A DNA stretch of 20,000 nt from an uncultured virus (IMG/VR IMGVR_UViG_3300038828_000071) (IMGVR_UViG_3300038828_000071:58536-78535); one strand, 5' to 3'. Shown: positions 1,306-11,844, counted from the first letter of the stretch. Notes: generated by a model not told the origin, from the letters alone. Program-made: numbers and translations.

Positions 1306-3009
1306 TTATATTGCTATTGATATTTTAATTAAACTTTCAGCATTAGCTTCTACTAACTTTTTTGCTACTAATGGAACAACTGAATTTCCTATTTGTTTTT
1401 TTTGTTCTGTTTGATTTCCTTTAAGTATATAATCTTTTGAAAAGCCTTGAATTTCTTTCAGTTCTTTTATTAATAACATTCTCATTTTGATATCAATAAT
1501 ACCATAAATAGCCATAAACTCCTTAATCTTTATGGTCATTTCAGAATCATCCTCAAACACTGCAATTGCAATTCTTCCTTGTTCTGCTTCAACAAGATAT
1601 GGAGGTCTTTTATCCATTCTTGCAATCAAAGTGAATGCAGGACGTTCTATGCTTCCACCAGCAGACTTATATTGCGGATTAAGAAGATAGTGCTGTTTTC
1701 TTGATGCTAAAATAGTGCCGTGTGGTTCATCTATCGATTTACCAACGTTACTAAATTGCGTGTCCATTACCCAATGCTCAGCCGTTACAAAATTATGTTT
1801 TGGCGTTGTTGTAACTGTCCCTGCTGGATAATCTATTGAAGTACTGTCAGAATTAGAATAACTCATCATTAAATAAGAGATTTTTGATATTCGATCCTTT
1901 GTTGTTAATGTTTGAGCAGGTAATTCAACTTCTCTATTTGTGCCATTTCCGTAATAAGACGACAGAAAATGTGACTGAACGAATGCATGATGATCTGATG
2001 TGGTTATAGTTCCAGCGGGAAGTTCTATATCTGAAACCTTTCCTTCAGGTCTGCCGGAATAGTATTTTTTTATAAATGCAGCTTTCACAATTCCAATACG
2101 TCCTTGTGTGCTAATAGTTGGGCATGGTTCATCAACTCCTGGTGGATTATGATGTCCTGATTGATTTATTGAATTGTACTTTAAAATCCATTTGTCCTTT
2201 CCACCTGCAACAAACTTTACTAATCCGGCATGTATTCTCTTTAATGTCGCATCTGAAAGTGGAATTTTTCTATCAAATATANNNNNNNNNNTGCCTTCTA
2301 TGTCAAAGTCTAAAACTTCTTTTACTGCTTTCCATGGTTTTTTATTATATTCAAAAAGATTTCCCATTTCTTTTTGTTTTTTTCTCGGATCATAGTGAGT
2401 TGTTTCTGGAAATGCTATTGGAAGACCGTGTTTTGCAAATATTCCGAAGTATCTATCTCTGGATGTGTATGCGCCAAAGTCGGCTGCATTTAGCATTTTC
2501 CAATTGTAATTATATCCCATGTGCTGCACAGTACGCACCCAATACATATAGTCGCATCCTTTATGCATATCTACTGGACGTCCGTTATTATCTAATTTTC
2601 CCCAAGACATAAACTCTCTGACATTTTCAATATATAAGTAGTCCGGGTTCAAATGCTCCAGGTACATCATTAAATCCCAAGCCAATGTGCGACTATCTCC
2701 GTCACGTGGTAAGCCGCCTTTTGCTTTACTGTAATTTGTACATTCAAGAGAAGCCCAAATATTGATGTAGCAATCCGGTTCTGCGAGTTTTAATTTATCA
2801 ACCAAAACCTTTAAATGTTCAACTACTTTAAAATCACGAATATCTTCCGTAAAATGTAAAGTTTTTGGATGATTTGCTTTGTGTGATGCTATTGCTTTTG
2901 CATCGTGATTAACACAAGCTACAACATCTAATCCTGCCAAATGGATTCCGGTAGAAGTTCCACCAGCTCCGGCAAACAAATCTATCCAGTAAATTTTTGG
3001 AGTTTCCAT
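1306..3009 (-). CDS. C5 cytosine DNA methyltransferase (Dcm-like, phage type)
   Basis: Motif I DLFAGAGG, catalytic motif IV variant SLECTNYS, motif VI ENV, motif VIII SRDR, motif X GNSV. The ORF spans an N-gap. Confidence 0.93.
   Translation of the reverse strand: METPKIYWIDLFAGAGGTSTGIHLAGLDVVACVNHDAKAIASHKANHPKTLHFTEDIRDFKVVEHLKVLVDKLKLAEPDCYINIWASLECTNYSKAKGGLPRDGDSRTLAWDLMMYLEHLNPDYLYIENVREFMSWGKLDNNGRPVDMHKGCDYMYWVRTVQHMGYNYNWKMLNAADFGAYTSRDRYFGIFAKHGLPIAFPETTHYDPRKKQKEMGNLFEYNKKPWKAVKEVLDFDIEGXXXXIFDRKIPLSDATLKRIHAGLVKFVAGGKDKWILKYNSINQSGHHNPPGVDEPCPTISTQGRIGIVKAAFIKKYYSGRPEGKVSDIELPAGTITTSDHHAFVQSHFLSSYYGNGTNREVELPAQTLTTKDRISKISYLMMSYSNSDSTSIDYPAGTVTTTPKHNFVTAEHWVMDTQFSNVGKSIDEPHGTILASRKQHYLLNPQYKSAGGSIERPAFTLIARMDKRPPYLVEAEQGRIAIAVFEDDSEMTIKIKEFMAIYGIIDIKMRMLLIKELKEIQGFSKDYILKGNQTEQKKQIGNSVVPLVAKKLVEANAESLIKISIAI
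2282..2291. other. Assembly gap (10 N)
   Basis: Run of N inside the methyltransferase gene. Confidence 1.
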
Positions 3010-4715: not shown

Positions 4716-5546
4716 TTAATTATTATTTGTAATTTGATTAATGTACATAAACATATCAGAATACTTTGTTTTAAGATATTCTTCATTACCTGTTCTTGTC
4801 TTTAATAACATCCAGTTCTCGCAAAATTTATCAATGCCTTCTATTTGTCCATGTTTTTTGATATACTCATACATTGCTAAATTTATATAATCATCTTCAT
4901 TTACTGCAGCATCTAATATTTTGGTAGCCATTACATGACCAATTCCTTGTATTCCGGTTATGTTATCAGTAACATCACCAACAAGTAATTGATATGCCAA
5001 ATTACGCTTTGCTTTATTTTGATCTACTAAATGATAATCTCCATTTTTAAAATTATAATGAAGCCCGGGAATTTGTTGCAAATCTTTATCATCAGAAATA
5101 ATAAAAGTATTTTTATTGCAAACCATGGATATCAAATCATCGGCTTCAATATCATCATATTTGAAAACAATTCCATATTTTCTGAATGCGTTAGGTATAG
5201 CTGCTAAATCTTGCATCTTACCATCATACATATAAGGATCAACTTTATCAGTTCTATTGCCTTTATATTTTTTAGTAAATCCAATTTTATCTCTGAAAGT
5301 ATTTTCAGATTTACCGGAAAAGAAAAATACTAAATATTTAAATTTAATAGAATTATTTATTTCGTTTATGATGCTATCAAGAGCTTCATCTACGGTTAAT
5401 TGTTCACCAGTATCTTGTATGTTCTTATAGATACGATAAGTAATTATGTATTTATACTTATCGGCATCAATAAGAGCTACCATATCAGAAGTATTATATA
5501 CTTCTTGTGAGTTTGATGATGTTGGTTTAAATGGTTTAATTTCCAT
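4716..5546 (-). CDS. 5'-3' exonuclease / flap endonuclease (T7 gp6 / T4 RNase H-like)
   Basis: LIDAD, YKGNR, EADD, DKDL and H3TH motif GDVTDNITGIQGIG. Confidence 0.9.
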   Translation of the reverse strand: MEIKPFKPTSSNSQEVYNTSDMVALIDADKYKYIITYRIYKNIQDTGEQLTVDEALDSIINEINNSIKFKYLVFFFSGKSENTFRDKIGFTKKYKGNRTDKVDPYMYDGKMQDLAAIPNAFRKYGIVFKYDDIEADDLISMVCNKNTFIISDDKDLQQIPGLHYNFKNGDYHLVDQNKAKRNLAYQLLVGDVTDNITGIQGIGHVMATKILDAAVNEDDYINLAMYEYIKKHGQIEGIDKFCENWMLLKTRTGNEEYLKTKYSDMFMYINQITNNN

Positions 5547-5578
5547 AATTATTAATGTTTATTATTTATTATTTAACT

Positions 5579-5614
5579 TATAAACGAACCTGTACTTCGT
5601 TTACAGAGATGTTA
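5579..5614 (+). repeat. Array-heading site copy 1 (candidate attI-like site)
   Basis: 35/36 identical to 8100-8135; internal hairpin TAAACGAA/TTCGTTTA; ends in the GTT that begins cassette A. Confidence 0.7.
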
Positions 5615-5623
5615 TGTGCCATT

Positions 5624-5863
5624 TTAAGAGCCGACACTGAAAATGATACGCCTTACAACTCCATCTGAATTTATTTTATCAGATTGTGCCATCACAATGC
5701 GTTCAGTATATCCTTGCTTGCTTTCATTCCATACCCATTTCTGTCTGTTGCCATCATAGTCATACAATATTCCTTCTATTTCACAAATTTTAGTACAATC
5801 ATCTATTTTTGTACTCATTTGCATAACGTCACCACCAGCGACATAAAATTCGGTTTTTATCAT
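5624..5863 (-). CDS. Cassette A hypothetical protein (MIKTEF..., 79 aa)
   Basis: ATG at 5863 preferred over GTG at 5905. Bounded by GTTATGTGCC (5611-5620) / GGCACATAAC (5891-5900). Confidence 0.7.
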   Translation of the reverse strand: MIKTEFYVAGGDVMQMSTKIDDCTKICEIEGILYDYDGNRQKWVWNESKQGYTERIVMAQSDKINSDGVVRRIIFSVGS

Positions 5864-5893
5864 TTCAATTAAGATTTGTGAAGAAAAAACGGC

Positions 5894-6024
5894 ACATAAC
5901 AGCACCTAACCAAAATTGGCGGTTTAGTGGTTATATCAACGTTTCTGCTTCGGTTTAACATTATTTTATATTCAAGTTTTGTGCTTCGTAATCGCCAACT
6001 TCGGTTAGCTGCAAAACGTTAGCG
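5894..6024 (+). repeat. attC-like site 1 (131 bp)
   Basis: ACATAAC...GTTAGCG; arms CTAACCAAAATTGGCG (5906-5921) / CGCCAACTTCGGTTAG (5993-6008). Confidence 0.85.
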
Positions 6025-6048
6025 GTAATGTAAAAGATACCGCCTAAA

Positions 6049-6456
6049 CTATTCGTATTTAATAAATAATTCATTTACTTTTTCTTCTAATTCGTTTAAA
6101 AAAGTAGTGTTTAGAATTTGTTTTAATCTATCTTTTTCAAATTTTTCATTACCATTCCAAAAAGAAATTGAAACGCTTTCTTTTGAGTTTATATAACTGA
6201 TTTTATCAAACCAAAAATTAAACTGAACATTTTTTTTAGGAAATTTTAAATGATAAGATAGATTGAAGTTGTTATCTATTTGTCTCCAAAATTCATAGTT
6301 AACAATTTTAATTCCGTCATTATAGCTTTCACTTGCATTTGGAAATTTAGACATAAACTCTCTAAATCTATTTTCAGTAAGCAATACACTACCGCTAACA
6401 CTCGTTTGCACGCATTGCGGTTTTTGTGGTTCAATGATATTTTTATTTCGCATCAT
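6049..6456 (-). CDS. Cassette B hypothetical protein (135 aa), starts inside site 2
   Basis: Cassette ends GTTAGCGGTA (6018-6027) / TACCGCTAAC (6390-6399). Confidence 0.7.
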   Translation of the reverse strand: MMRNKNIIEPQKPQCVQTSVSGSVLLTENRFREFMSKFPNASESYNDGIKIVNYEFWRQIDNNFNLSYHLKFPKKNVQFNFWFDKISYINSKESVSISFWNGNEKFEKDRLKQILNTTFLNELEEKVNELFIKYE

Positions 6457-6525
6457 ATTTATTTTTAAGTTGAAAATTTGTCGTTACGAACTCCGCAACG
6501 ACGAGCAAGCGAGATAACGTTACCT
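6393..6525 (+). repeat. attC-like site 2 (133 bp)
   Basis: Arms CTCGTTTGCACGCATTGCGG (6401-6420) / CCGCAACGACGAGCAAGCGAG (6493-6513); GTT at 6519. Confidence 0.8.
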
Positions 6526-6531
6526 GCAAGG

Positions 6532-6747
6532 CTACTCATCCGTTTCAAAATCACATTCCAATTCATCTAACAAAATGGGGTGAATACTATTTGCTTCAAA
6601 TCCACTTTCATTTGCAGCATCATAAACCATCATTTCCCAATCCTCGACCAGTTTGTTAATCTTACGTTTGAAATTTTTAAACTGCTCTTCCGTAATAGGT
6701 TTGTCAGTTTCAAAGTCAAAATTTAGTGTTCCTGTAATTGTTGCCAT
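6532..6747 (-). CDS. Cassette C acidic hypothetical protein (71 aa)
   Basis: Cassette ends GTTACCTGC (6519-6527) / GCAGGTAAC (6792-6800). Confidence 0.75.
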   Translation of the reverse strand: MATITGTLNFDFETDKPITEEQFKNFKRKINKLVEDWEMMVYDAANESGFEANSIHPILLDELECDFETDE

Positions 6748-6793
6748 TTTATTGTTGTTTAAAAATTAAGTTCCTACTGATAAACCGCCCAGC

Positions 6794-6887
6794 AGGTAAC
6801 AGCGGTTTGGCAAAAGCTGCCAGAAAGTTTTGTGCGAAAATTCAAGTTCCCGTTAGGCAGCCTTCGCCAAGCCGCAAAACGTTAGGG
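6794..6887 (+). repeat. attC-like site 3 (94 bp)
   Basis: Arms GCGGTTTGGCAAAAGCTGCC (6802-6821) / GGCAGCCTTCGCCAAGCCGC (6856-6875). Confidence 0.88.
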
Positions 6888-6892
6888 TGCAT

Positions 6893-7165
6893 TTAAGACA
6901 CCCCAACCAATTCGCAACTTTTGAAAAATTCGTCCATTTCAGACTTATTCTCAAACTTTACTTTTAAACCTTCGACAATTCCTTCTTCGGTTCTGGGTTT
7001 TACGATTGTTAGCCAATGCCCGTCAGAACAATGACAAGTATCAATTCCGCAACCGCCATTGTCTTGGCTCATTACAATTTTCCCTTTTGTTTCAACTGCT
7101 CCAGCTTCATTTTCAAAAGTTCCGTCAGGTTTTACACCTTCCCATTTAAAAGACTCTATTTTCAT
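6893..7165 (-). CDS. Cassette D hypothetical protein (90 aa, CxxxxCHC motif)
   Basis: Cassette ends GTTAGGGTGC (6881-6890) / GCACCCTAAC (7184-7193). Confidence 0.75.
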   Translation of the reverse strand: MKIESFKWEGVKPDGTFENEAGAVETKGKIVMSQDNGGCGIDTCHCSDGHWLTIVKPRTEEGIVEGLKVKFENKSEMDEFFKSCELVGVS

Positions 7166-7186
7166 TTTGATTTAAATAAAAACGCA

Positions 7187-7316
7187 CCCTAACAAAGTAT
7201 AACCAAAAGCGGGGCGACATTCGCAAATTGGTAATTTGTGCTGCTAATTAACTTTGTACCGAAGGATAAGGCAGCAGCACTTAATCCCCGCCTTCGGTTA
7301 TACTCGACCGTTATGT
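7187..7316 (+). repeat. attC-like site 4 (130 bp)
   Basis: Arms AGTATAACCAAAAGCGGGG (7196-7214) / CCCCGCCTTCGGTTATACT (7286-7304). Confidence 0.88.
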
Positions 7317-7568
7317 GGCATTATAACAAATCAACCGAACTGCTTTCCAAAATCCGTGTTGTTTAATTAAATTATCCACATAGTGTCTATCTGGCGAGTG
7401 TCCTTCACTTCCGTATATATTATACAAATAAGATGGATAGCACTTTGAACGAAAAGAATAACGCCACATAACACGCAATATAAGTAACCAATGGTGTAGT
7501 GGTTTATTCAAGTTCTGTTTTTCAATTTTACGTTTCATATAATTTGATATTAAGTTTTTCAAAATCAT
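7311..7568 (-). CDS. Cassette E hypothetical protein (start 7568 or 7538, both inside site 5)
   Basis: Cassette ends GTTATGTGGC (7310-7319) / GCCACATAAC (7463-7472); the stop codon is the TAA of the core. Confidence 0.55.
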   Translation of the reverse strand: MILKNLISNYMKRKIEKQNLNKPLHHWLLILRVMWRYSFRSKCYPSYLYNIYGSEGHSPDRHYVDNLIKQHGFWKAVRLICYNAT

Positions 7569-7596
7569 TGGCTACTCATATTGCCATCCGTTATAT
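7466..7596 (+). repeat. attC-like site 5 (131 bp)
   Basis: Arms GCAATATAAGTAACCAATG (7475-7493) / CATTGGCTACTCATATTGC (7566-7584). Confidence 0.88.
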
Positions 7597-7602
7597 GCCA
7601 GT

Positions 7603-8061
7603 TTAAGAAACGTACTGCGAACATATTGCAATTACTTTTTGACATTGTTCTACATCAAACATTCCTATATGACATAAATCACGTTCAATGTTCATCTGTT
7701 TACTTAGCCATAAATAAGCCTTATTCCTATTTCCTAAATTAGGTATAAACTCTTTCCAAATCTTATTTATCAATCCTGTTTTAGCTATTTGGTCAAAGTA
7801 ATAATGAGCCTGTTTCTTTGCGTCCCTAAGTTCTTTATTTGCTAATCTCCCTAAGGCATTATCAGTTCCTTTATGTACACCAACGTAAGCATCACATGGC
7901 TTACAAATATAAATCATACCATAACTTTTACCATAAACAAATGAACTATCTATATACTCGGTTTTTGAGCCACAATAAGGGCAAATAAAACCGGCATATA
8001 ACACACGGTCATCAGCAATATTTGCCGTGCTTTGTGGATTATTTTCTGCTAATTTTGTCAT
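7603..8061 (-). CDS. Cassette F zinc-finger protein, DUF3268-like
   Basis: CPYCG...CKPCDAYVGVH...LGRLA...AH...AYLWL...HIGMFD pattern. Cassette ends GTTATATGCC (7590-7599) / GGCATATAAC (7993-8002). Confidence 0.8.
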   Translation of the reverse strand: MTKLAENNPQSTANIADDRVLYAGFICPYCGSKTEYIDSSFVYGKSYGMIYICKPCDAYVGVHKGTDNALGRLANKELRDAKKQAHYYFDQIAKTGLINKIWKEFIPNLGNRNKAYLWLSKQMNIERDLCHIGMFDVEQCQKVIAICSQYVS

Positions 8062-8099
8062 TTGTTTTTCAATTAATATTATTATTTAATTATTTCGAG

Positions 8100-8135
8100 T
8101 ATAAACGAACCTGTACTTCGTTTACAGGGATGTTA
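8100..8135 (+). repeat. Array-heading site copy 2, in place of the right arm of site 6
   Basis: Near-identical to 5579-5614; not complementary to the left arm at about 8003-8030. Confidence 0.7.
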
Positions 8136-8151
8136 GCGGAGATTGTTCTAA

Positions 8152-8355
8152 TCACGTTTCAAAAGACGAAATAAAATTGTAAATTTCTTCAACTTTATCA
8201 ATATCAATCTCGTTTTTAAATTCATAATTAAAAACTACTTTTTTATTACTTGATTTAATTTCTTTTGTAAATAAGTTTAAAGATAAACATCCTTTAATAT
8301 ACCAATTTCCTGCTTTATGATAACCAAGATTTTGTAATTTTTCAAATAATAACAT
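8152..8355 (-). CDS. Cassette G second gene, hypothetical (67 aa)
   Basis: ATG ORF overlapping the upstream gene by 14 nt. Confidence 0.65.
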   Translation of the reverse strand: MLLFEKLQNLGYHKAGNWYIKGCLSLNLFTKEIKSSNKKVVFNYEFKNEIDIDKVEEIYNFISSFET

Positions 8356-8521
8356 TTTTCTGTTTTTTATTAATTAAACTTTGCGCAGCTCTTTTTGTTT
8401 TAGTAGTGGAGTTTGAACCTTTCCACAACCACATTGCATAATCAAAATCATTGTCAACTATCCAACTTATCAATTTGCCTTTATATTTTCCAAATTGTGC
8501 TTTTTGTTCTTCTGATTTCAT
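8342..8521 (-). CDS. Cassette G first gene, small FGKYKG-motif protein (DUF3820 / exonuclease X C-terminal-like)
   Basis: FGKYKGKLISWI...DYAMWL; ATG at 8521. Cassette ends GTTAGCGGAG (8132-8141) / CTCCGCTAAC (8550-8559). Confidence 0.7.
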   Translation of the reverse strand: MKSEEQKAQFGKYKGKLISWIVDNDFDYAMWLWKGSNSTTKTKRAAQSLINKKQKNVII

Positions 8522-8552
8522 AAAAAATTCCTTATTAACGACCCACAACCTC

Positions 8553-8685
8553 CGCTAACAGCAGTTACACAAGATTTGGGTTTTAGGTTTTCTGTATTCA
8601 TTGTTTTGTACTTTTAAATATTAGTGATTAATCGAAGATTTAGGCTTACTTTTCCCAAACCTCGTGTAGCTGCGAACCGTTAGCC
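8553..8685 (+). repeat. attC-like site 7 (133 bp)
   Basis: Arms GCAGTTACACAAGATTTGGG (8561-8580) / CCCAAACCTCGTGTAGCTGC (8654-8673). Confidence 0.88.
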
Positions 8686-8691
8686 GCAAGC

Positions 8692-9039
8692 CTAAGAAAC
8701 AACCTGCAACAAATCAGCATTCTCAAAAATATTTCCGACAACTTTGTTTAAGTTACCCAGACTATTCGCAAGCGACACAATACGAGTTTCATCATCAAAA
8801 TAGCGACAATACCAAGCGGCTTCATCTTCATTCCAGTAAACAATTTGCAATGCCTTTGTGTCGCAATTTTCAATTATATCTCCTTCGTAAACTTCCGTTC
8901 CGTTTATCTGTGCATCTTCCCTGCCAGTAAATTGCATTACTTCTATTTCAGGATGTTCGTTGTCGTATGGCAAAATTGACCTGTAAACCATTTTTGACAA
9001 TGCCTTGTCGTAAAATCTGAATTTAATTTGTCTGTTCAT
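8692..9039 (-). CDS. Cassette H YopX family protein
   Basis: IKFRFYD...MQFTG...EVYEGDI...VVGNIFEN signature. Cassette ends GTTAGCCGC (8679-8687) / GCGGCTAAC (9066-9074). Confidence 0.9.
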   Translation of the reverse strand: MNRQIKFRFYDKALSKMVYRSILPYDNEHPEIEVMQFTGREDAQINGTEVYEGDIIENCDTKALQIVYWNEDEAAWYCRYFDDETRIVSLANSLGNLNKVVGNIFENADLLQVVS

Positions 9040-9067
9040 TTTTATTGTTGTTGTGAGAAAGGCCAGC

Positions 9068-9163
9068 GGCTAACAGCGGTTTTGCAATAGCCGCCTGACA
9101 GTTCTCGGTTAATAATTAAGTTCATTCTTTGGCGGCCATCGCAAAGCCGCCCAAACGTTAGCG
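9068..9163 (+). repeat. attC-like site 8 (96 bp)
   Basis: Arms GCGGTTTTGCAATAGCCGCC (9076-9095) / GGCGGCCATCGCAAAGCCGC (9131-9150). Confidence 0.88.
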
Positions 9164-9169
9164 GCAACC

Positions 9170-9520
9170 CTAAGAGTGCCACTCGGTAACATCGAACTCC
9201 GATGGAAGTAACCCAAGTTGTTTGCCATTTTCTAAAATAGCAGAAACAGCACCGTAGGAATTAACCCATACATAATACTCACCATCTTTTAAGGCTATGG
9301 TATCTTTTTCAATTCCTAAAATTGGTGCAAATTCCATTAAATCAGGTGTAACAGTTTTAGCCAATTTTACTTTTAAAGGAACTCTACCCCGAAAATTTGC
9401 AGGATATGCAGATCTGCCTTTTCTATCCGATTGCCATTTTAAAGCGGGAGAAGTAAGGGCAGCCGCTAACATCTGCTCATACGTAAGCGGGTTTTTAGTG
9501 GTAATTTCAAGTGTGTTCAT
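9170..9520 (-). CDS. Cassette I hypothetical protein (ATG at 9520 inside site 9)
   Basis: Cassette ends GTTAGCGGC (9157-9165) / GCCGCTAAC (9462-9470). Confidence 0.7.
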   Translation of the reverse strand: MNTLEITTKNPLTYEQMLAAALTSPALKWQSDRKGRSAYPANFRGRVPLKVKLAKTVTPDLMEFAPILGIEKDTIALKDGEYYVWVNSYGAVSAILENGKQLGLLPSEFDVTEWHS

Positions 9521-9595
9521 ATAATTTAAGTTATTAAAGTTTGACAAATTTGTATTTCAAAATCCCCGCCTACGCATAGCAGACGGGCGTTATGC
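9464..9595 (+). repeat. attC-like site 9 (132 bp)
   Basis: Arms TCTGCTCATACGTAAGCGGG (9472-9491) / CCCGCCTACGCATAGCAGA (9565-9583); one extra C in the left arm. Confidence 0.85.
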
Positions 9596-9850
9596 TCCAT
9601 GCCCTCCGACCCTCGTGTTCCAACTTTCAATACAAGTTTTAGCACACCATTCAGCATCGTGCCTTAATGTTGCATCTGTCCTTTCAACCCTACAATGCGA
9701 GCCAGTGCATTTAATTGTAACTTTTCTGCTTTTAGTAGATTTATTTCCTATAAATGTTATCTTAGGCTCGCATCCGCAAAATGGGCACGGGAGCATAACA
9801 TCGGCTAAAAAAACATTGCCGTTATTGTCGCTATATTCAACTTTCTGCAT
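9590..9850 (-). CDS. Cassette J Lar-like (restriction alleviation) zinc-ribbon protein
   Basis: LPCPFCG...C....C...WNTR pattern. Cassette ends GTTATGCTCC (9589-9598) / GGAGCATAAC (9790-9799). Confidence 0.75.
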   Translation of the reverse strand: MQKVEYSDNNGNVFLADVMLPCPFCGCEPKITFIGNKSTKSRKVTIKCTGSHCRVERTDATLRHDAEWCAKTCIESWNTRVGGHGA

Positions 9851-9924
9851 CTTATTTAATTTTAGTTGTTAATGAAAATTTATCTTTATAAATCGGCAAC
9901 GAACGCCAACCGTCAACGTTAGCG
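9793..9924 (+). repeat. attC-like site 10 (132 bp, degenerate pairing)
   Basis: CGG...CATTGCCG pairs partly with CGGCAACG...CCG; correct length and cores. Confidence 0.65.
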
Positions 9925-10128
9925 ACAATTCTTAGCAACTGTAAGAACCCACTTTAGTTGTTCATCATCCAACCATCTGGGATATACTTGTCCAGCCTTT
10001 GTTTCTTTATAACTTTTATTGTATTCAGCGAAAAGTGCATCAATGAATTTTACATCATCAAAAGAACTGTCGCTAACAGCACCTATACCCAATTGGGCAG
10101 TTTCGTTGTTTTTTGAAGTTTCTTCCAT
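9919..10128 (-). CDS. Cassette K hypothetical protein (69 aa)
   Basis: Cassette ends GTTAGCGACA (9918-9927) / TGTCGCTAAC (10068-10077), 15/16 when extended; stop lies in the core. Confidence 0.7.
   Translation of the reverse strand: MEETSKNNETAQLGIGAVSDSSFDDVKFIDALFAEYNKSYKETKAGQVYPRWLDDEQLKWVLTVAKNCR
10071..10105 (+). repeat. Left half of attC-like site 11, right arm missing
   Basis: CGCTAACAGCACCTATACCCAATTGGGCAG resembles the site 1 left arm (TAACAGCACCTAACC); no complementary arm before the GTT at 10288. Confidence 0.6.
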
Positions 10129-10149: not shown

Positions 10150-10251
10150 TCAATGAATTGAATCTATTACCTCGCCATATACTGAATGAGGCAATCCATA
10201 AATCCAACCATCTGTACCCGCTATTTTTGCTCTAAATTTTATTTGTTTCAT
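10150..10251 (-). pseudogene. Truncated YopX-like N-terminal fragment (33 aa)
   Basis: My translation: MKQIKFRAKIAGTDGWIYGLPHSVYGEVIDSIH*, with the IKFRA...WIYG YopX start. Not in the ORF track. Confidence 0.65.
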
Positions 10252-10307
10252 TTGTTTTGTTTTAAGTTGTTATTCGTTTATGTGTATGTTATGTGCAATA
10301 AATTTTA

Positions 10308-10532
10308 CTACCCTATTGCATAACCAGAATTTTCTTGTTCCGAAACTTCCTTTGGTTTATTAATACCTACACAAGCCAATATCTTTTCAGCAGCATCCCT
10401 ACTTTGCCAAAAATCAGGATGTGCAATTACCCTAATTTCATCATCCTCATAAATAGCACTTATCTGTTCAATTATCTTAATAATTTGCATACGCTTGTGT
10501 ATGTATTTTTTTGTTTTTGTTTTTGTGTCCAT
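10308..10532 (-). CDS. Hypothetical protein (74 aa)
   Basis: ATG ORF following the last GTT core at 10288. Confidence 0.65.
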   Translation of the reverse strand: MDTKTKTKKYIHKRMQIIKIIEQISAIYEDDEIRVIAHPDFWQSRDAAEKILACVGINKPKEVSEQENSGYAIG

Positions 10533-10537
10533 TATTT

Positions 10538-10741
10538 CTATTTATTTAAAATTATACGATTCACTGTACGCGTTTTAAAATGAATTAAATCTTGTTCATA
10601 CTCTCTTTTCATTCTTTCAATTTCCATTTTTTCAATAGGTGGTAAAATGAAATCAGAATTAGATTTAAATATCTTTACATCTTCCCATTTTTTATTGGGT
10701 GCTTTCGATTGAAATACAACTTGGTGAATATATTTATTCAT
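10538..10741 (-). CDS. Hypothetical protein (67 aa)
   Basis: TAATG coupling to the clamp gene. Confidence 0.7.
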   Translation of the reverse strand: MNKYIHQVVFQSKAPNKKWEDVKIFKSNSDFILPPIEKMEIERMKREYEQDLIHFKTRTVNRIILNK

Positions 10742-11844
10742 TATAGTAAAGGCATTAATAATGTAAAATTTTCTGAATCATCAGAATTAATAATAATTGC
10801 ACGATTACCATCGGTGATATTTATATTTACAATTTTAGAATCAATTGCTTTTATACAATTCAAAAATAATTCATGACTAAATGTTTTAGAAATGGCATCA
10901 CCATTAAAAAGTATAAACGGACAATTTACTATTGCACTTTTTGCAAAATCAATATCTAAGCATGAAATATTTAATTCATTATAAATTTTTTCAAATAATA
11001 CTTTTTTAGTATTTGGTAATGCCCATTTAATTCGATTTAATGAATTTATTAATTCATCTTTTTGTACCTTAATAACAGAAACAAACTCTTTAGGAATAAC
11101 AGATTCATAATTTGGAAATTTACCATTTATAAGCCTTGAATAAATTACTGATTTATTTATCTCAAATTTTAAAGTTTGATTATTAAATGACATAATCAAA
11201 TTATCTACTCCTGGTTCTATCAAATTAGTAATTGCAGGAATAGAAGATTTGGGCAATAGCACATTAAATTCTTTTTCTAAATCTAATTTAATTTTTGATA
11301 AAATTAAAACATGTCCATTAGTAGCCACAAATTTTAAATCCTTTTCTTTCGATTCTAAATAAACACCCATCATAGAAGCTCTTAATGGATCATTACCGGT
11401 AAACTTTTCTGATGATAAAAGAATATCAGAAAGAGTTTTTGCATCAATAACAGTTTGATTTTGAAAATCATCATTATTTAATCTTGGAAATAAATTCTCT
11501 GTCATAGTAGCTATTTCAAATGTACCTTTTGAATGCTTAAATACTATTACAAGATTATTCATGAAAACAGATATTTCTTCATTTTTCAATGTTGATAATC
11601 CTTTTTCCAATAATTCATAATTGATTAAAAAGGAAGCTGATTCTTCAGAATCAATATCTTTTGCAACATCGATATTTAATATGATATCAGTTTCTAAATC
11701 AGTTCTCCTAACTGACAAATCGTTTCCTTTTAAATCAAAATGAACACCATTTAGATAATCTAAAGTTGCGCTTAATTTAATTTTATTCGTTTTTTTAATT
11801 GCTTTTAAAAGCGACTCTGAATTTACTTTAAATAAATTTTTCAT
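10741..11844 (-). CDS. dnaN: DNA polymerase III beta sliding clamp
   Basis: 367 aa; RTDLE, VATNGHVL, SRLINGKFPNYESVIP and C-terminal LLMPL. Confidence 0.92.
   Translation of the reverse strand: MKNLFKVNSESLLKAIKKTNKIKLSATLDYLNGVHFDLKGNDLSVRRTDLETDIILNIDVAKDIDSEESASFLINYELLEKGLSTLKNEEISVFMNNLVIVFKHSKGTFEIATMTENLFPRLNNDDFQNQTVIDAKTLSDILLSSEKFTGNDPLRASMMGVYLESKEKDLKFVATNGHVLILSKIKLDLEKEFNVLLPKSSIPAITNLIEPGVDNLIMSFNNQTLKFEINKSVIYSRLINGKFPNYESVIPKEFVSVIKVQKDELINSLNRIKWALPNTKKVLFEKIYNELNISCLDIDFAKSAIVNCPFILFNGDAISKTFSHELFLNCIKAIDSKIVNINITDGNRAIIINSDDSENFTLLMPLL

Follow-up and report, generated by a model that had tools for sequence, protein, structure and literature searches.

A probable integron-like cassette array with reversed cargo polarity in the replication module of a Bacteroidota-type phage

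Introduction

Classical integrons, with their integrase IntI, attachment site attI and promoter Pc, carry mostly single-gene units joined at imperfect hairpins (attC sites) that end in AAC and GTT. In the portion of PMC5027507 available to us, the orientation of a gene relative to attC is presented as a fixed integron rule that lets Pc read promoterless cassettes; classical attC sites are given as having 1.24 G:T mispairs in the bottom and 0.39 in the top strand, and cleavage is placed in the AAC of the bottom-strand R box. Here we describe a tract from an uncultured virus (IMG/VR record IMGVR_UViG_3300038828_000071, 78,535 bases, completeness rating 99%), of which we analyzed the final 20 kb, 20,000 nucleotides (nt) that we call the window and number from its first letter. 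This tract is probably an integron-like cassette array with reversed cargo polarity, located in the replication module of a Bacteroidota-type phage.

Among the closest described systems are phage-borne clusters of attC sites lacking an integron integrase (CALINs), reported among others from Polaribacter phage P12002L, one of whose sites recombines with attI1 via IntI1 (PMC9892861, available to us in part). In that part of the paper the sites are taken as ordinary attC, 'divergent directions' are noted in P12002L, and neither hairpin-first units nor a phage-host split is described. As far as the same text goes, P12002L resembles our locus in having an integrase-less cluster of attC-like sites in a virulent Flavobacteriia phage with methyltransferase cargo. 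By its structure the tract would qualify as a CALIN; it is, however, a new variant of the integron principle and not an ordinary CALIN. Integrons in Bacteroidetes have been reported as very few (PMC9024848, in the sections accessible to us), and we found no report of Bacteroidota chromosomal arrays with this hairpin family in the literature that we searched. Likewise, full-text searches, with bioRxiv supplements outside their coverage, turned up no account of cassettes that begin with a hairpin, nor of phage and host arrays that differ in polarity. Toxin-antitoxin cassettes of sedentary chromosomal integrons are similar in their Pc-independent expression (PMC13108822, as given in its available part), but they are exceptions within canonical arrays, whereas the reversal described here extends to the entire array and to 19 of 20 viral loci.

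The likeness to classical integrons goes beyond single-gene units and hairpins. Each unit has its own complementary box pair, one strand is enriched in G:T pairs, folds better and has the crossover AAC at its 5' end, and in complete relatives a tyrosine recombinase gene stands beside the terminal site on the folding strand. Unlike in classical integrons, the cargo is encoded on the folding strand, so that the hairpin comes before the gene. The terminal site lies downstream of the genes, and a Pc placed there could not read them for that reason. The linked recombinase of the relatives falls below the integron-integrase cut-off, spacer asymmetry is ~5 nt instead of 1 nt, and bulged bases are rare.

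Results

Units that begin with a hairpin

The stretch 5611-10128 holds twelve open reading frames (ORFs; g1 to g12 in Table 1), all on the minus strand, which are grouped as 11 units, because the ORFs at 8152-8355 and 8342-8548 occupy one unit. All sizeable ORFs of the window, and all Pfam-matched ORFs in the flanks, are on the same strand; ORF and Pfam evidence thus confirm an earlier note on this DNA, which had described 12 cassette ORFs oriented like the flanking phage genes. These flanks form a replication and nucleotide module (FEN-type 5'-3' exonuclease, dUTPase, C5 methylase, sliding clamp, SF1 helicase, DnaB and DUF932), and G+C content goes from 22-28% in the backbone up to 31-41% in the tract at 5.6-10.1 kb. 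Between the ORFs are nine hairpins of 88-127 nt (labelled h in Table 1) and two half-sites. Read on the minus strand, a site consists of a box and TAAC, a G and about four unpaired bases, a stem of ~20 base pairs (bp), a variable loop, the return stem, usually one T, and GTTA followed by a box. All 11 units are bracketed by GTTA plus box and by box plus TAAC, with 5-6 extra complementary bases; in classical integrons, too, the outer box of a site pairs with the beginning of its cassette. A stringent scan of the 78.5-kb genome recovered six array hairpins per strand and one match per strand outside the array, which we read as chance. Three hairpins (h2, h9 and h10) were added by eye on the basis of boxes and folding, with h10 being weak.

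Box pairs are uninformative on which hairpin travels with a gene, because they fit either reading. Three comparisons of rearranged loci bear on the question directly. Flavobacterium phage 2A (NC_031926) and an IMG/VR provirus have three blocks of 99.9-100% identity, in the order A-B-C in one and A-C-X-B in the other, and on the strand that carries the annotated genes, all five internal block ends fall in a common CTAACG at a hairpin's 5' end. On the left of this motif the variable box bases are kept by the upstream gene, and on the right the hairpin is kept by the downstream gene or genes. From IMG/VR phages, contigs L083 and L085-87 have one 97% block in common, which runs from TAAC through the hairpin and a 108-codon gene to box plus TAAC and has unlike sequence on both flanks. 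Lastly, a 704-nt contig of another study matches the window over exactly 8132-8682, from the TAAC of h7 to the next TAAC, again with unlike flanks; this unit comprises h7, g8 and g7.

In all three comparisons the apparent mobile unit is a hairpin with the gene downstream of it, bounded by TAAC on the coding strand. On its own coding strand, a classical cassette has G/TT as its boundary and the hairpin after the gene. The natural rearrangements place the crossover on the better-folding strand, in the 5' R box and within its AAC, and the classical arrangement, an ORF followed by attC and antisense to the recombined strand, is not the one seen here. The earlier note had put the attC-like site at the 5' end of each gene and had proposed following which neighbouring hairpin co-travels with a gene in other genomes. 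Block ends at the coding-strand TAAC bear out that placement, and in phages it is the 5'-side hairpin that co-travels; the opposite outcome, with the hairpin kept on the 3' side, did not appear. A general survey of high-identity block ends scored 168 of 171 as lying 'elsewhere', but was swamped by hairpin-free loci, and its misses include two phage 2A ends at a hairpin that the scanner had overlooked and that were later placed by eye.

The folding strand and conserved site structure

Folding energy, computed with DNA parameters, was lower on the minus strand at all nine sites. For G:T pairs we relied on a detection step that treats G:T and A:C alike and named the strand by its longer 5' spacer. 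On that strand G:T exceeded A:C by 12:3 in the window (six hairpins), by 140:62 in viral loci and by 126:48 in bacterial loci. The lower energy and the G:T excess together make the coding strand the counterpart of the integron bottom strand, and the claim that wobble asymmetry marks polarity holds for the minus strand on both measures. The spacer asymmetry of h1 had at first seemed canonical, a reading that was dropped after all sites had been folded.

We built a structural alignment of 20 sites, four from the window, ten from viral contigs and six from bacterial contigs. Of its 25 consensus pairs, 18 are changed on both sides. Paired cells amount to 94%, compared to 65% in shuffles and 34-47% with a slid partner, although this percentage is partly built in because the scanner that chose the members demands pairing; the variety of pair types is not built in. 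The covariation score was 0.658 versus 0.148 in shuffles, in keeping with an attC-type structure, and two G:U pairs are invariant or nearly so (20/20 and 19/19 sequences). A bulged G occurs in h9 alone, while in the family a 5' bulge of 4 nt and, often, a C/A mismatch are seen. Among individual sites, h1 has full-length relatives of 75-79% identity in bacterial genome contigs, and h2 is 86-90% identical to hairpins of Flavobacterium phage 2A and six IMG/VR contigs, whose outer stems differ from it by compensatory changes.

Opposite polarity in phage and bacterial arrays

To compare chromosomes with phages, bacterial and archaeal genome contigs were scanned with the hairpin-end pattern, which yields many chance matches. 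True hairpins were present in 37 of the 121 loci, almost all of them from Bacteroidota, and Pedobacter psychrophilus, for example, has seven consecutive hairpins, while a Kaistella and a Flavobacterium isolate have four each. These chromosomal sites have the consensus of the phage sites (TAAC, G plus 4 nt, 20-bp stem, T, GTTA) and co-align and covary with them. Unlike in the phages, their genes lie opposite the folding strand, which is the canonical layout.

ORFs of at least 50 amino acids (aa) were called mechanically on the hairpin's 3' side, relative to the folding strand. Among 48 viral hairpins the ORF was on the same strand in 38 cases, on the opposite strand in 7 and absent in 3; among 56 bacterial hairpins the corresponding numbers were 7, 38 and 8, with 3 at a contig edge (Fisher p = 4e-11). 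Counted by the majority within each locus (same/opposite/tie), the split was 19/0/1 for viral and 7/23/7 for bacterial loci (p = 4e-8), which is the fairer figure because hairpins of one array are not independent. In at least one bacterial locus called 'same' (L100), the long ORFs are on the opposite strand, and the split may therefore be sharper than counted. The opposite-strand bacterial ORFs are real genes, including a MepB-like gene (E 8e-53), an Mrr-type nuclease (Mrr_cat) and AbiV.

Cargo also differs between the two groups. The window carries Lar, YopX and DUF3268 genes and its relatives carry DNA methylases, whereas bacterial arrays hold defence-type cargo (AbiV, Mrr-type) and MepB-like genes. 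None of the window's cassette proteins was found in the bacterial loci. The comparison of ORF orientation next to homologous hairpins, which the earlier note had asked for, therefore gives a canonical layout in bacteria and an inverted one in viruses within one hairpin family, and the proposal of a distinct phage cassette pool agrees with this polarity split and with the cargo.

P12002L (L091, NC_028924.1) shows the family's site architecture on the coding strand, with hairpins of the family before methylase and Mom-like genes at 29240-30090 and 38035-38936. Going by the available part of PMC9892861, the attC1 oligo used there is the coding-strand hairpin between two P12002L methylase genes, and the active site attC2 corresponds to the terminal site that follows gp35, the last gene, and was called on the other strand. 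Provided that the forward oligo represents the predicted top strand, attC2 would have recombined on the coding strand, which would fit the polarity described here.

Terminal sites and a linked recombinase in relatives

The array consists of two sub-arrays, which end downstream of g1 and g7 in common sequence directly after TAAC. Terminal site 1 contains an exact 26-nt repeat of 8102-8127, and its box is complementary to 5888-5900. The half-site that starts the lower sub-array has terminal site 2 in place of a 5' arm and a box complementary to 7590-7602; we recognized it by comparison with complete hairpins. A 64-nt direct repeat (5551-5614 and 8072-8135; 83% identity) comprises the terminal sequence and the AT-rich stretch before the FEN gene and g6, respectively.

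No PF00589 match is present in the 78.5-kb genome, and tblastn (E<=10) for remnants gave chance-level matches only; the window thus has neither an IntI nor an adjacent Xer-like recombinase. A complete 59-kb viral relative (L003) encodes a 268-aa tyrosine recombinase 49 nt after its last box plus TAAC, on the strand of the cassette genes. This protein scores 146 bits against the 265-bit cut-off of the integron-integrase model TIGR02249 and is below the XerA, XerC and XerD cut-offs as well. A related viral contig (L005) has a 41%-identical homologue in a like position. On the folding strand, the order of array, terminal site and recombinase gene is that of a classical integron, and only the cargo is reversed.

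Five Bacteroidota genomes with arrays (those behind L113, L122, L129, L167 and L098) all encode a homologue of the phage recombinase with 37-44% identity. The retrieved flanks of these bacterial homologues contain no hairpin in 6 of 7 loci, and the seventh has a different, 71-nt type of site in another arrangement. The bacterial homologues are distinct from weaker Xer-type matches, and some lie near contig ends, as judged by the locus limits. No PF00589 match was found in the 642-kb phage LR756502.1.

Start codons in hairpins and the source of transcription

The earlier note had also located gene starts within the hairpins. This is borne out for the longest ORF of 6 of the 12 genes, which starts in a hairpin or half-hairpin (6456, 7568, 8061, 9547, 9850 and 10128), and a seventh in-hairpin start, GTG 5905, is ambiguous. 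In the DUF3268 gene (g6), the first ~25 codons are a hairpin-encoded leader that recurs with 73-90% identity before unrelated genes in other viral contigs, where it is the loop and 3' arm of a complete family hairpin. The leader frame is open for 84-108 aa through the box in 9/9 other loci and for 152 aa in the window, while the non-leader frames at those loci end within 4-27 codons. One loop ATG reads in frame into seven genes, six distinct ones elsewhere and that of the window. At L082-L090 and in the window (7990-8061), a hairpin-encoded N-terminus of ~21 residues (MTKLAENNPQ...) is fused in frame to at least seven unrelated proteins of different phages, so that many predicted cassette products would carry one common N-terminal tag. 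Similarly, the first 21-28 codons of g2 match homologous hairpins at seven other loci, and the Pfam match of g11, whose ATG is in the loop of h10, begins at the box. At the other end of a unit, the stop codon TAA of g12 is the TAA of the next TAAC.

In-loop start codons imply that the hairpins themselves carry expression signals. An attI with Pc upstream of the genes was not found, the common terminal sequence being downstream of them both here and in L003. Given this position, we infer read-through from the phage operon, that is, from the upstream replication genes, aided by start signals in the hairpins. Sites of the sigma-70 promoter type were not enriched (28 versus 28.3 expected), nor was TAnnTTTG, which we take to be the Bacteroidota -7 consensus (33 versus 37.5 expected, none in minus-strand hairpin loops). 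Terminator-like sites numbered 6 versus 3.1 +/- 2.1. We draw no conclusion from any of these three counts. A look-up of RNA runs listed none containing this stretch.

Proposed mechanism and alternative explanations

Orientation, structure, covariation, unit boundaries and the phage-bacterium split are demonstrated here, and to them our model would add an enzyme, a single-strand folding mechanism, docking at the terminal sequence and expression by read-through. A unit would extend, on the coding strand, from the C of TAAC (cut as TAA/C) through the hairpin, GTTA with a 5-6-nt box and one or two genes to the complementary box and TAA. Its hairpin would be an imperfect one, with a spacer of 4-5 nt on the 5' side and of 0-2 nt on the 3' side, a stem of ~20 bp in which G:T pairs are conserved, and a variable loop. 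The best-folding strand with the crossover AAC at its 5' side, equivalent to the integron bottom strand, would here be the coding strand, and the hairpin therefore precedes the gene, in a mirror image of classical and bacterial arrays. Movement of the units most likely depends on a small tyrosine recombinase, Xer-like and working on the folded strand; as this enzyme is absent here, the array would be a stranded store, shuffled only in trans. If the terminal sequence is the docking site, new units would join at the far end of the transcription unit. Upstream phage transcription and hairpin signals would express the genes, with the loop giving the start codon in half of the units.

Several observations weigh against this model. 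Half-sites without a 5' arm begin both sub-arrays, which the model in its simple form does not predict, and no recombinase is encoded in a 99%-complete genome. The window's own population yielded no recombination event; joints in aligned contigs were considered as excision events and rejected, their sides being 20-30 nt long and taken as other family members or repeats. Hairpins and polarity come from a custom scanner, with no published attC model, and part of the pairing in the alignment follows from that scanner. The split between phages and bacteria is not absolute (7/45 calls are contrary in each group), and it depends on mechanical ORF calls. The crossover side was read from viral comparisons only, there being no common cassettes among the 23 bacterial loci. 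Some matches also fit the proposed unit poorly: in the 704-nt contig, the arms of h7 are shared but its loop differs at 22 letters and has 4 indels, while the genes are without listed difference; L006 has h2, its upstream box and 28 nt more with a downstream box that does not match; and in LR756502.1 a different gene is enclosed by h3 and the same box pair. Since hairpins and boxes are conserved as families, single comparisons can mislead.

Among alternatives, the hairpins could act in the transcript, for instance as leaders, processing sites or attenuators that follow the direction of transcription, and the mosaic would then arise from homologous recombination between them instead of site-specific recombination on a folded strand. 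They are indeed transcribed as the sense strand, their G:U pairs would stabilize RNA too, start codons are found in the loops, the phage has no recombinase, and the arms are long enough for homologous exchange. We nevertheless regard this explanation as improbable. In bacterial contigs, hairpins of this family are antisense to the genes and yet have their G:T bias on the same strand of the site, which ties the bias to the DNA site rather than to mRNA. The invariant TAAC is exactly where block ends fall, with no scatter over the 20-bp arms, each unit has its own complementary box pair, and an Xer-like recombinase adjoins the arrays of two related viral contigs.

We give still less credit to an inert relic, in which units were captured once, perhaps by a recombinase-bearing ancestor, and were oriented only by selection against genes opposing phage transcription, without there being a phage pool. 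Inverting a whole classical cassette leaves the relation of gene and hairpin unchanged, so orientation selection alone cannot yield hairpin-first units. The same polarity in 19/20 viral loci, the recurrence of a window unit elsewhere with other neighbours and the phage-type cargo (Lar, YopX, DUF3268) also speak against a relic, to be set beside the missing recombinase, the decayed h10, the half-sites, the remnant at 10151-10324 and the failure to find a close backbone relative in IMG/VR, all of which would suit one. The idea that phage units are classical cassettes moved by top-strand recombination was rejected on logic, as gene and site invert together.

Least credible of all is a canonical layout, with the minus strand as top strand, each gene followed by its own hairpin and the crossover at the 3'-side G/TT: although the TAAC...GTTA motif is symmetric and reads alike on both strands, stop codons are close to the next box, box complementarity across genes fits either reading, and the published attC call in P12002L uses the coding strand as forward, all block ends in three independent comparisons fall at the coding-strand TAAC 5' of the hairpin, the coding strand has both the G:T excess and the lower folding energy, starts and N-termini lie inside the upstream hairpin, and recombinase and terminal site are 3' of the genes.

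If a whole class of arrays had the opposite rule, restricted to phages, with related host arrays following the classical one, the orientation rule of integrons would be an adaptation to the source of transcription and not a constraint of recombination chemistry. Tools for attC detection that assume classical orientation would mis-annotate phage cassettes, of which the published 'divergent' call may be an example. Such a class would also point to an extensive mobile reservoir of accessory and counter-defence genes of phages (Lar and DNA methylases among them), exchanged under a testable rule. We further propose, tentatively and with rather less than even confidence, that Bacteroidota phages may keep a private, mirror-image cassette pool, with the folded recombination site of their hosts' arrays but the cargo on the folding strand, in which the transcribed site doubles as 5' leader and start codon. 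Under such a scenario, a host cassette in a phage array would be antisense and silent, and vice versa, so that polarity would separate host defence from phage counter-defence cassettes despite one recombination chemistry. Coding-strand transcription during infection might then also free the strand to fold and so tie shuffling to infection. Cultured Flavobacterium and Polaribacter phages carry such arrays, which opens the question to experiment.

Features of the window and additional observations

Coordinates of the array and of the adjoining backbone genes are listed in Table 1. Family matches were obtained for 3 of the 12 cassette ORFs (DUF3268, YopX and Lar-like restriction alleviation), with concordant PHROGs results. 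The ORF at 7311-7568 (g5) has no family match in Pfam or PHROGs and may not be a real gene.

Table 1 Sites and genes in and around the cassette array, in window coordinates
Feature	Position	Strand	Evidence or remark
FEN-type 5'-3' exonuclease, backbone, directly downstream of array	4716..5546	-	Pfam PF02739/PF01367
Terminal site 1, 3' end of lower array	5577..5623	-	box+TAAC of last unit, then short 8-bp hairpin sequence
g1, 79 aa (93 aa from GTG 5905)	5624..5863	-	
Hairpin h1, 125 nt	5897..6021	-	
g2, 135 aa, ATG within h2 loop	6049..6456	-	
Hairpin h2, 127 nt	6396..6522	-	
g3, 71 aa	6532..6747	-	
Hairpin h3, 88 nt	6797..6884	-	89% identity to site in huge phage LR756502.1
g4, 90 aa	6893..7165	-	
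Hairpin h4, 124 nt	7190..7313	-	
g5, 85 aa, starts in h5 loop, doubtful gene	7311..7568	-	
Hairpin h5, 125 nt	7469..7593	-	
g6, 152 aa, DUF3268 zinc-finger protein	7603..8061	-	Pfam PF11672, E 1e-36, from residue 26
Half-site: loop, 3' arm and GTTA box of leader-type hairpin	7990..8061	-	comparison with complete hairpins of L083-L088
Terminal site 2, second terminal-sequence copy, 3' end of upper array	8072..8144	-	
g7, small ORF, unit common with g8	8152..8355	-	
g8, small ORF, unit common with g7	8342..8548	-	
Hairpin h7, 127 nt	8556..8682	-	
g9, 115 aa, YopX family	8692..9039	-	Pfam PF09643, E 1e-13; phrog_98
Hairpin h8, 90 nt	9071..9160	-	
g10, 125 aa, start in h9 loop	9170..9547	-	
Hairpin h9, 126 nt, bulged G in minus-strand 3' arm, below stringent threshold	9467..9592	-	
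g11, 86 aa, Lar-like restriction alleviation protein	9590..9850	-	PF14354, E 2e-9, residues 19-80; phrog_599
Hairpin h10, 126 nt, decayed stem, weak fold	9796..9921	-	boxes
g12, 69 aa	9919..10128	-	starts in half-site
Second half-site, 3' arm and GTTA box, at g12 start	10065-10100	-	
Decayed upper edge: 33-codon ORF fragment, terminal-sequence copy, inverted box pair	10151..10324	-	
DNA polymerase III beta sliding clamp, backbone, upstream of array	10741..11844	-	PF00712/PF02767/PF02768

Searches for close relatives returned little: the sliding clamp retrieved no close backbone relative from IMG/VR, the 22-nt terminal-site motif was also without match, and megablast of the whole window against GenBank phages gave the h3 match only.

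At the decayed upper edge, a degenerate third copy of the terminal sequence lies at 10268-10299, and an inverted box pair at 10288-10299 and 10315-10324. Compared by eye, the 33-codon fragment next to it (10151-10252, minus strand) begins much as the YopX gene g9 does at its N-terminus, and the fragment may be the stump of a lost cassette. Downstream of the array, the 567-aa C5 cytosine methylase gene (1306-3009) has a G+C content of 35-38% compared to 22-28% around it, with no family hairpin detected at its edges.

Contigs from the source sample contain short-loop hairpins that are h1-like (5916-5998) and h7-like (8587-8653), at 3-4x the depth of the phage; this greater depth implies that more abundant elements of the sample use the same sites. 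LR756502.1 (L001) has a small array at 5655-6190, in which a ~73-nt segment starting from the GTTA box is repeated on either side of one cassette.

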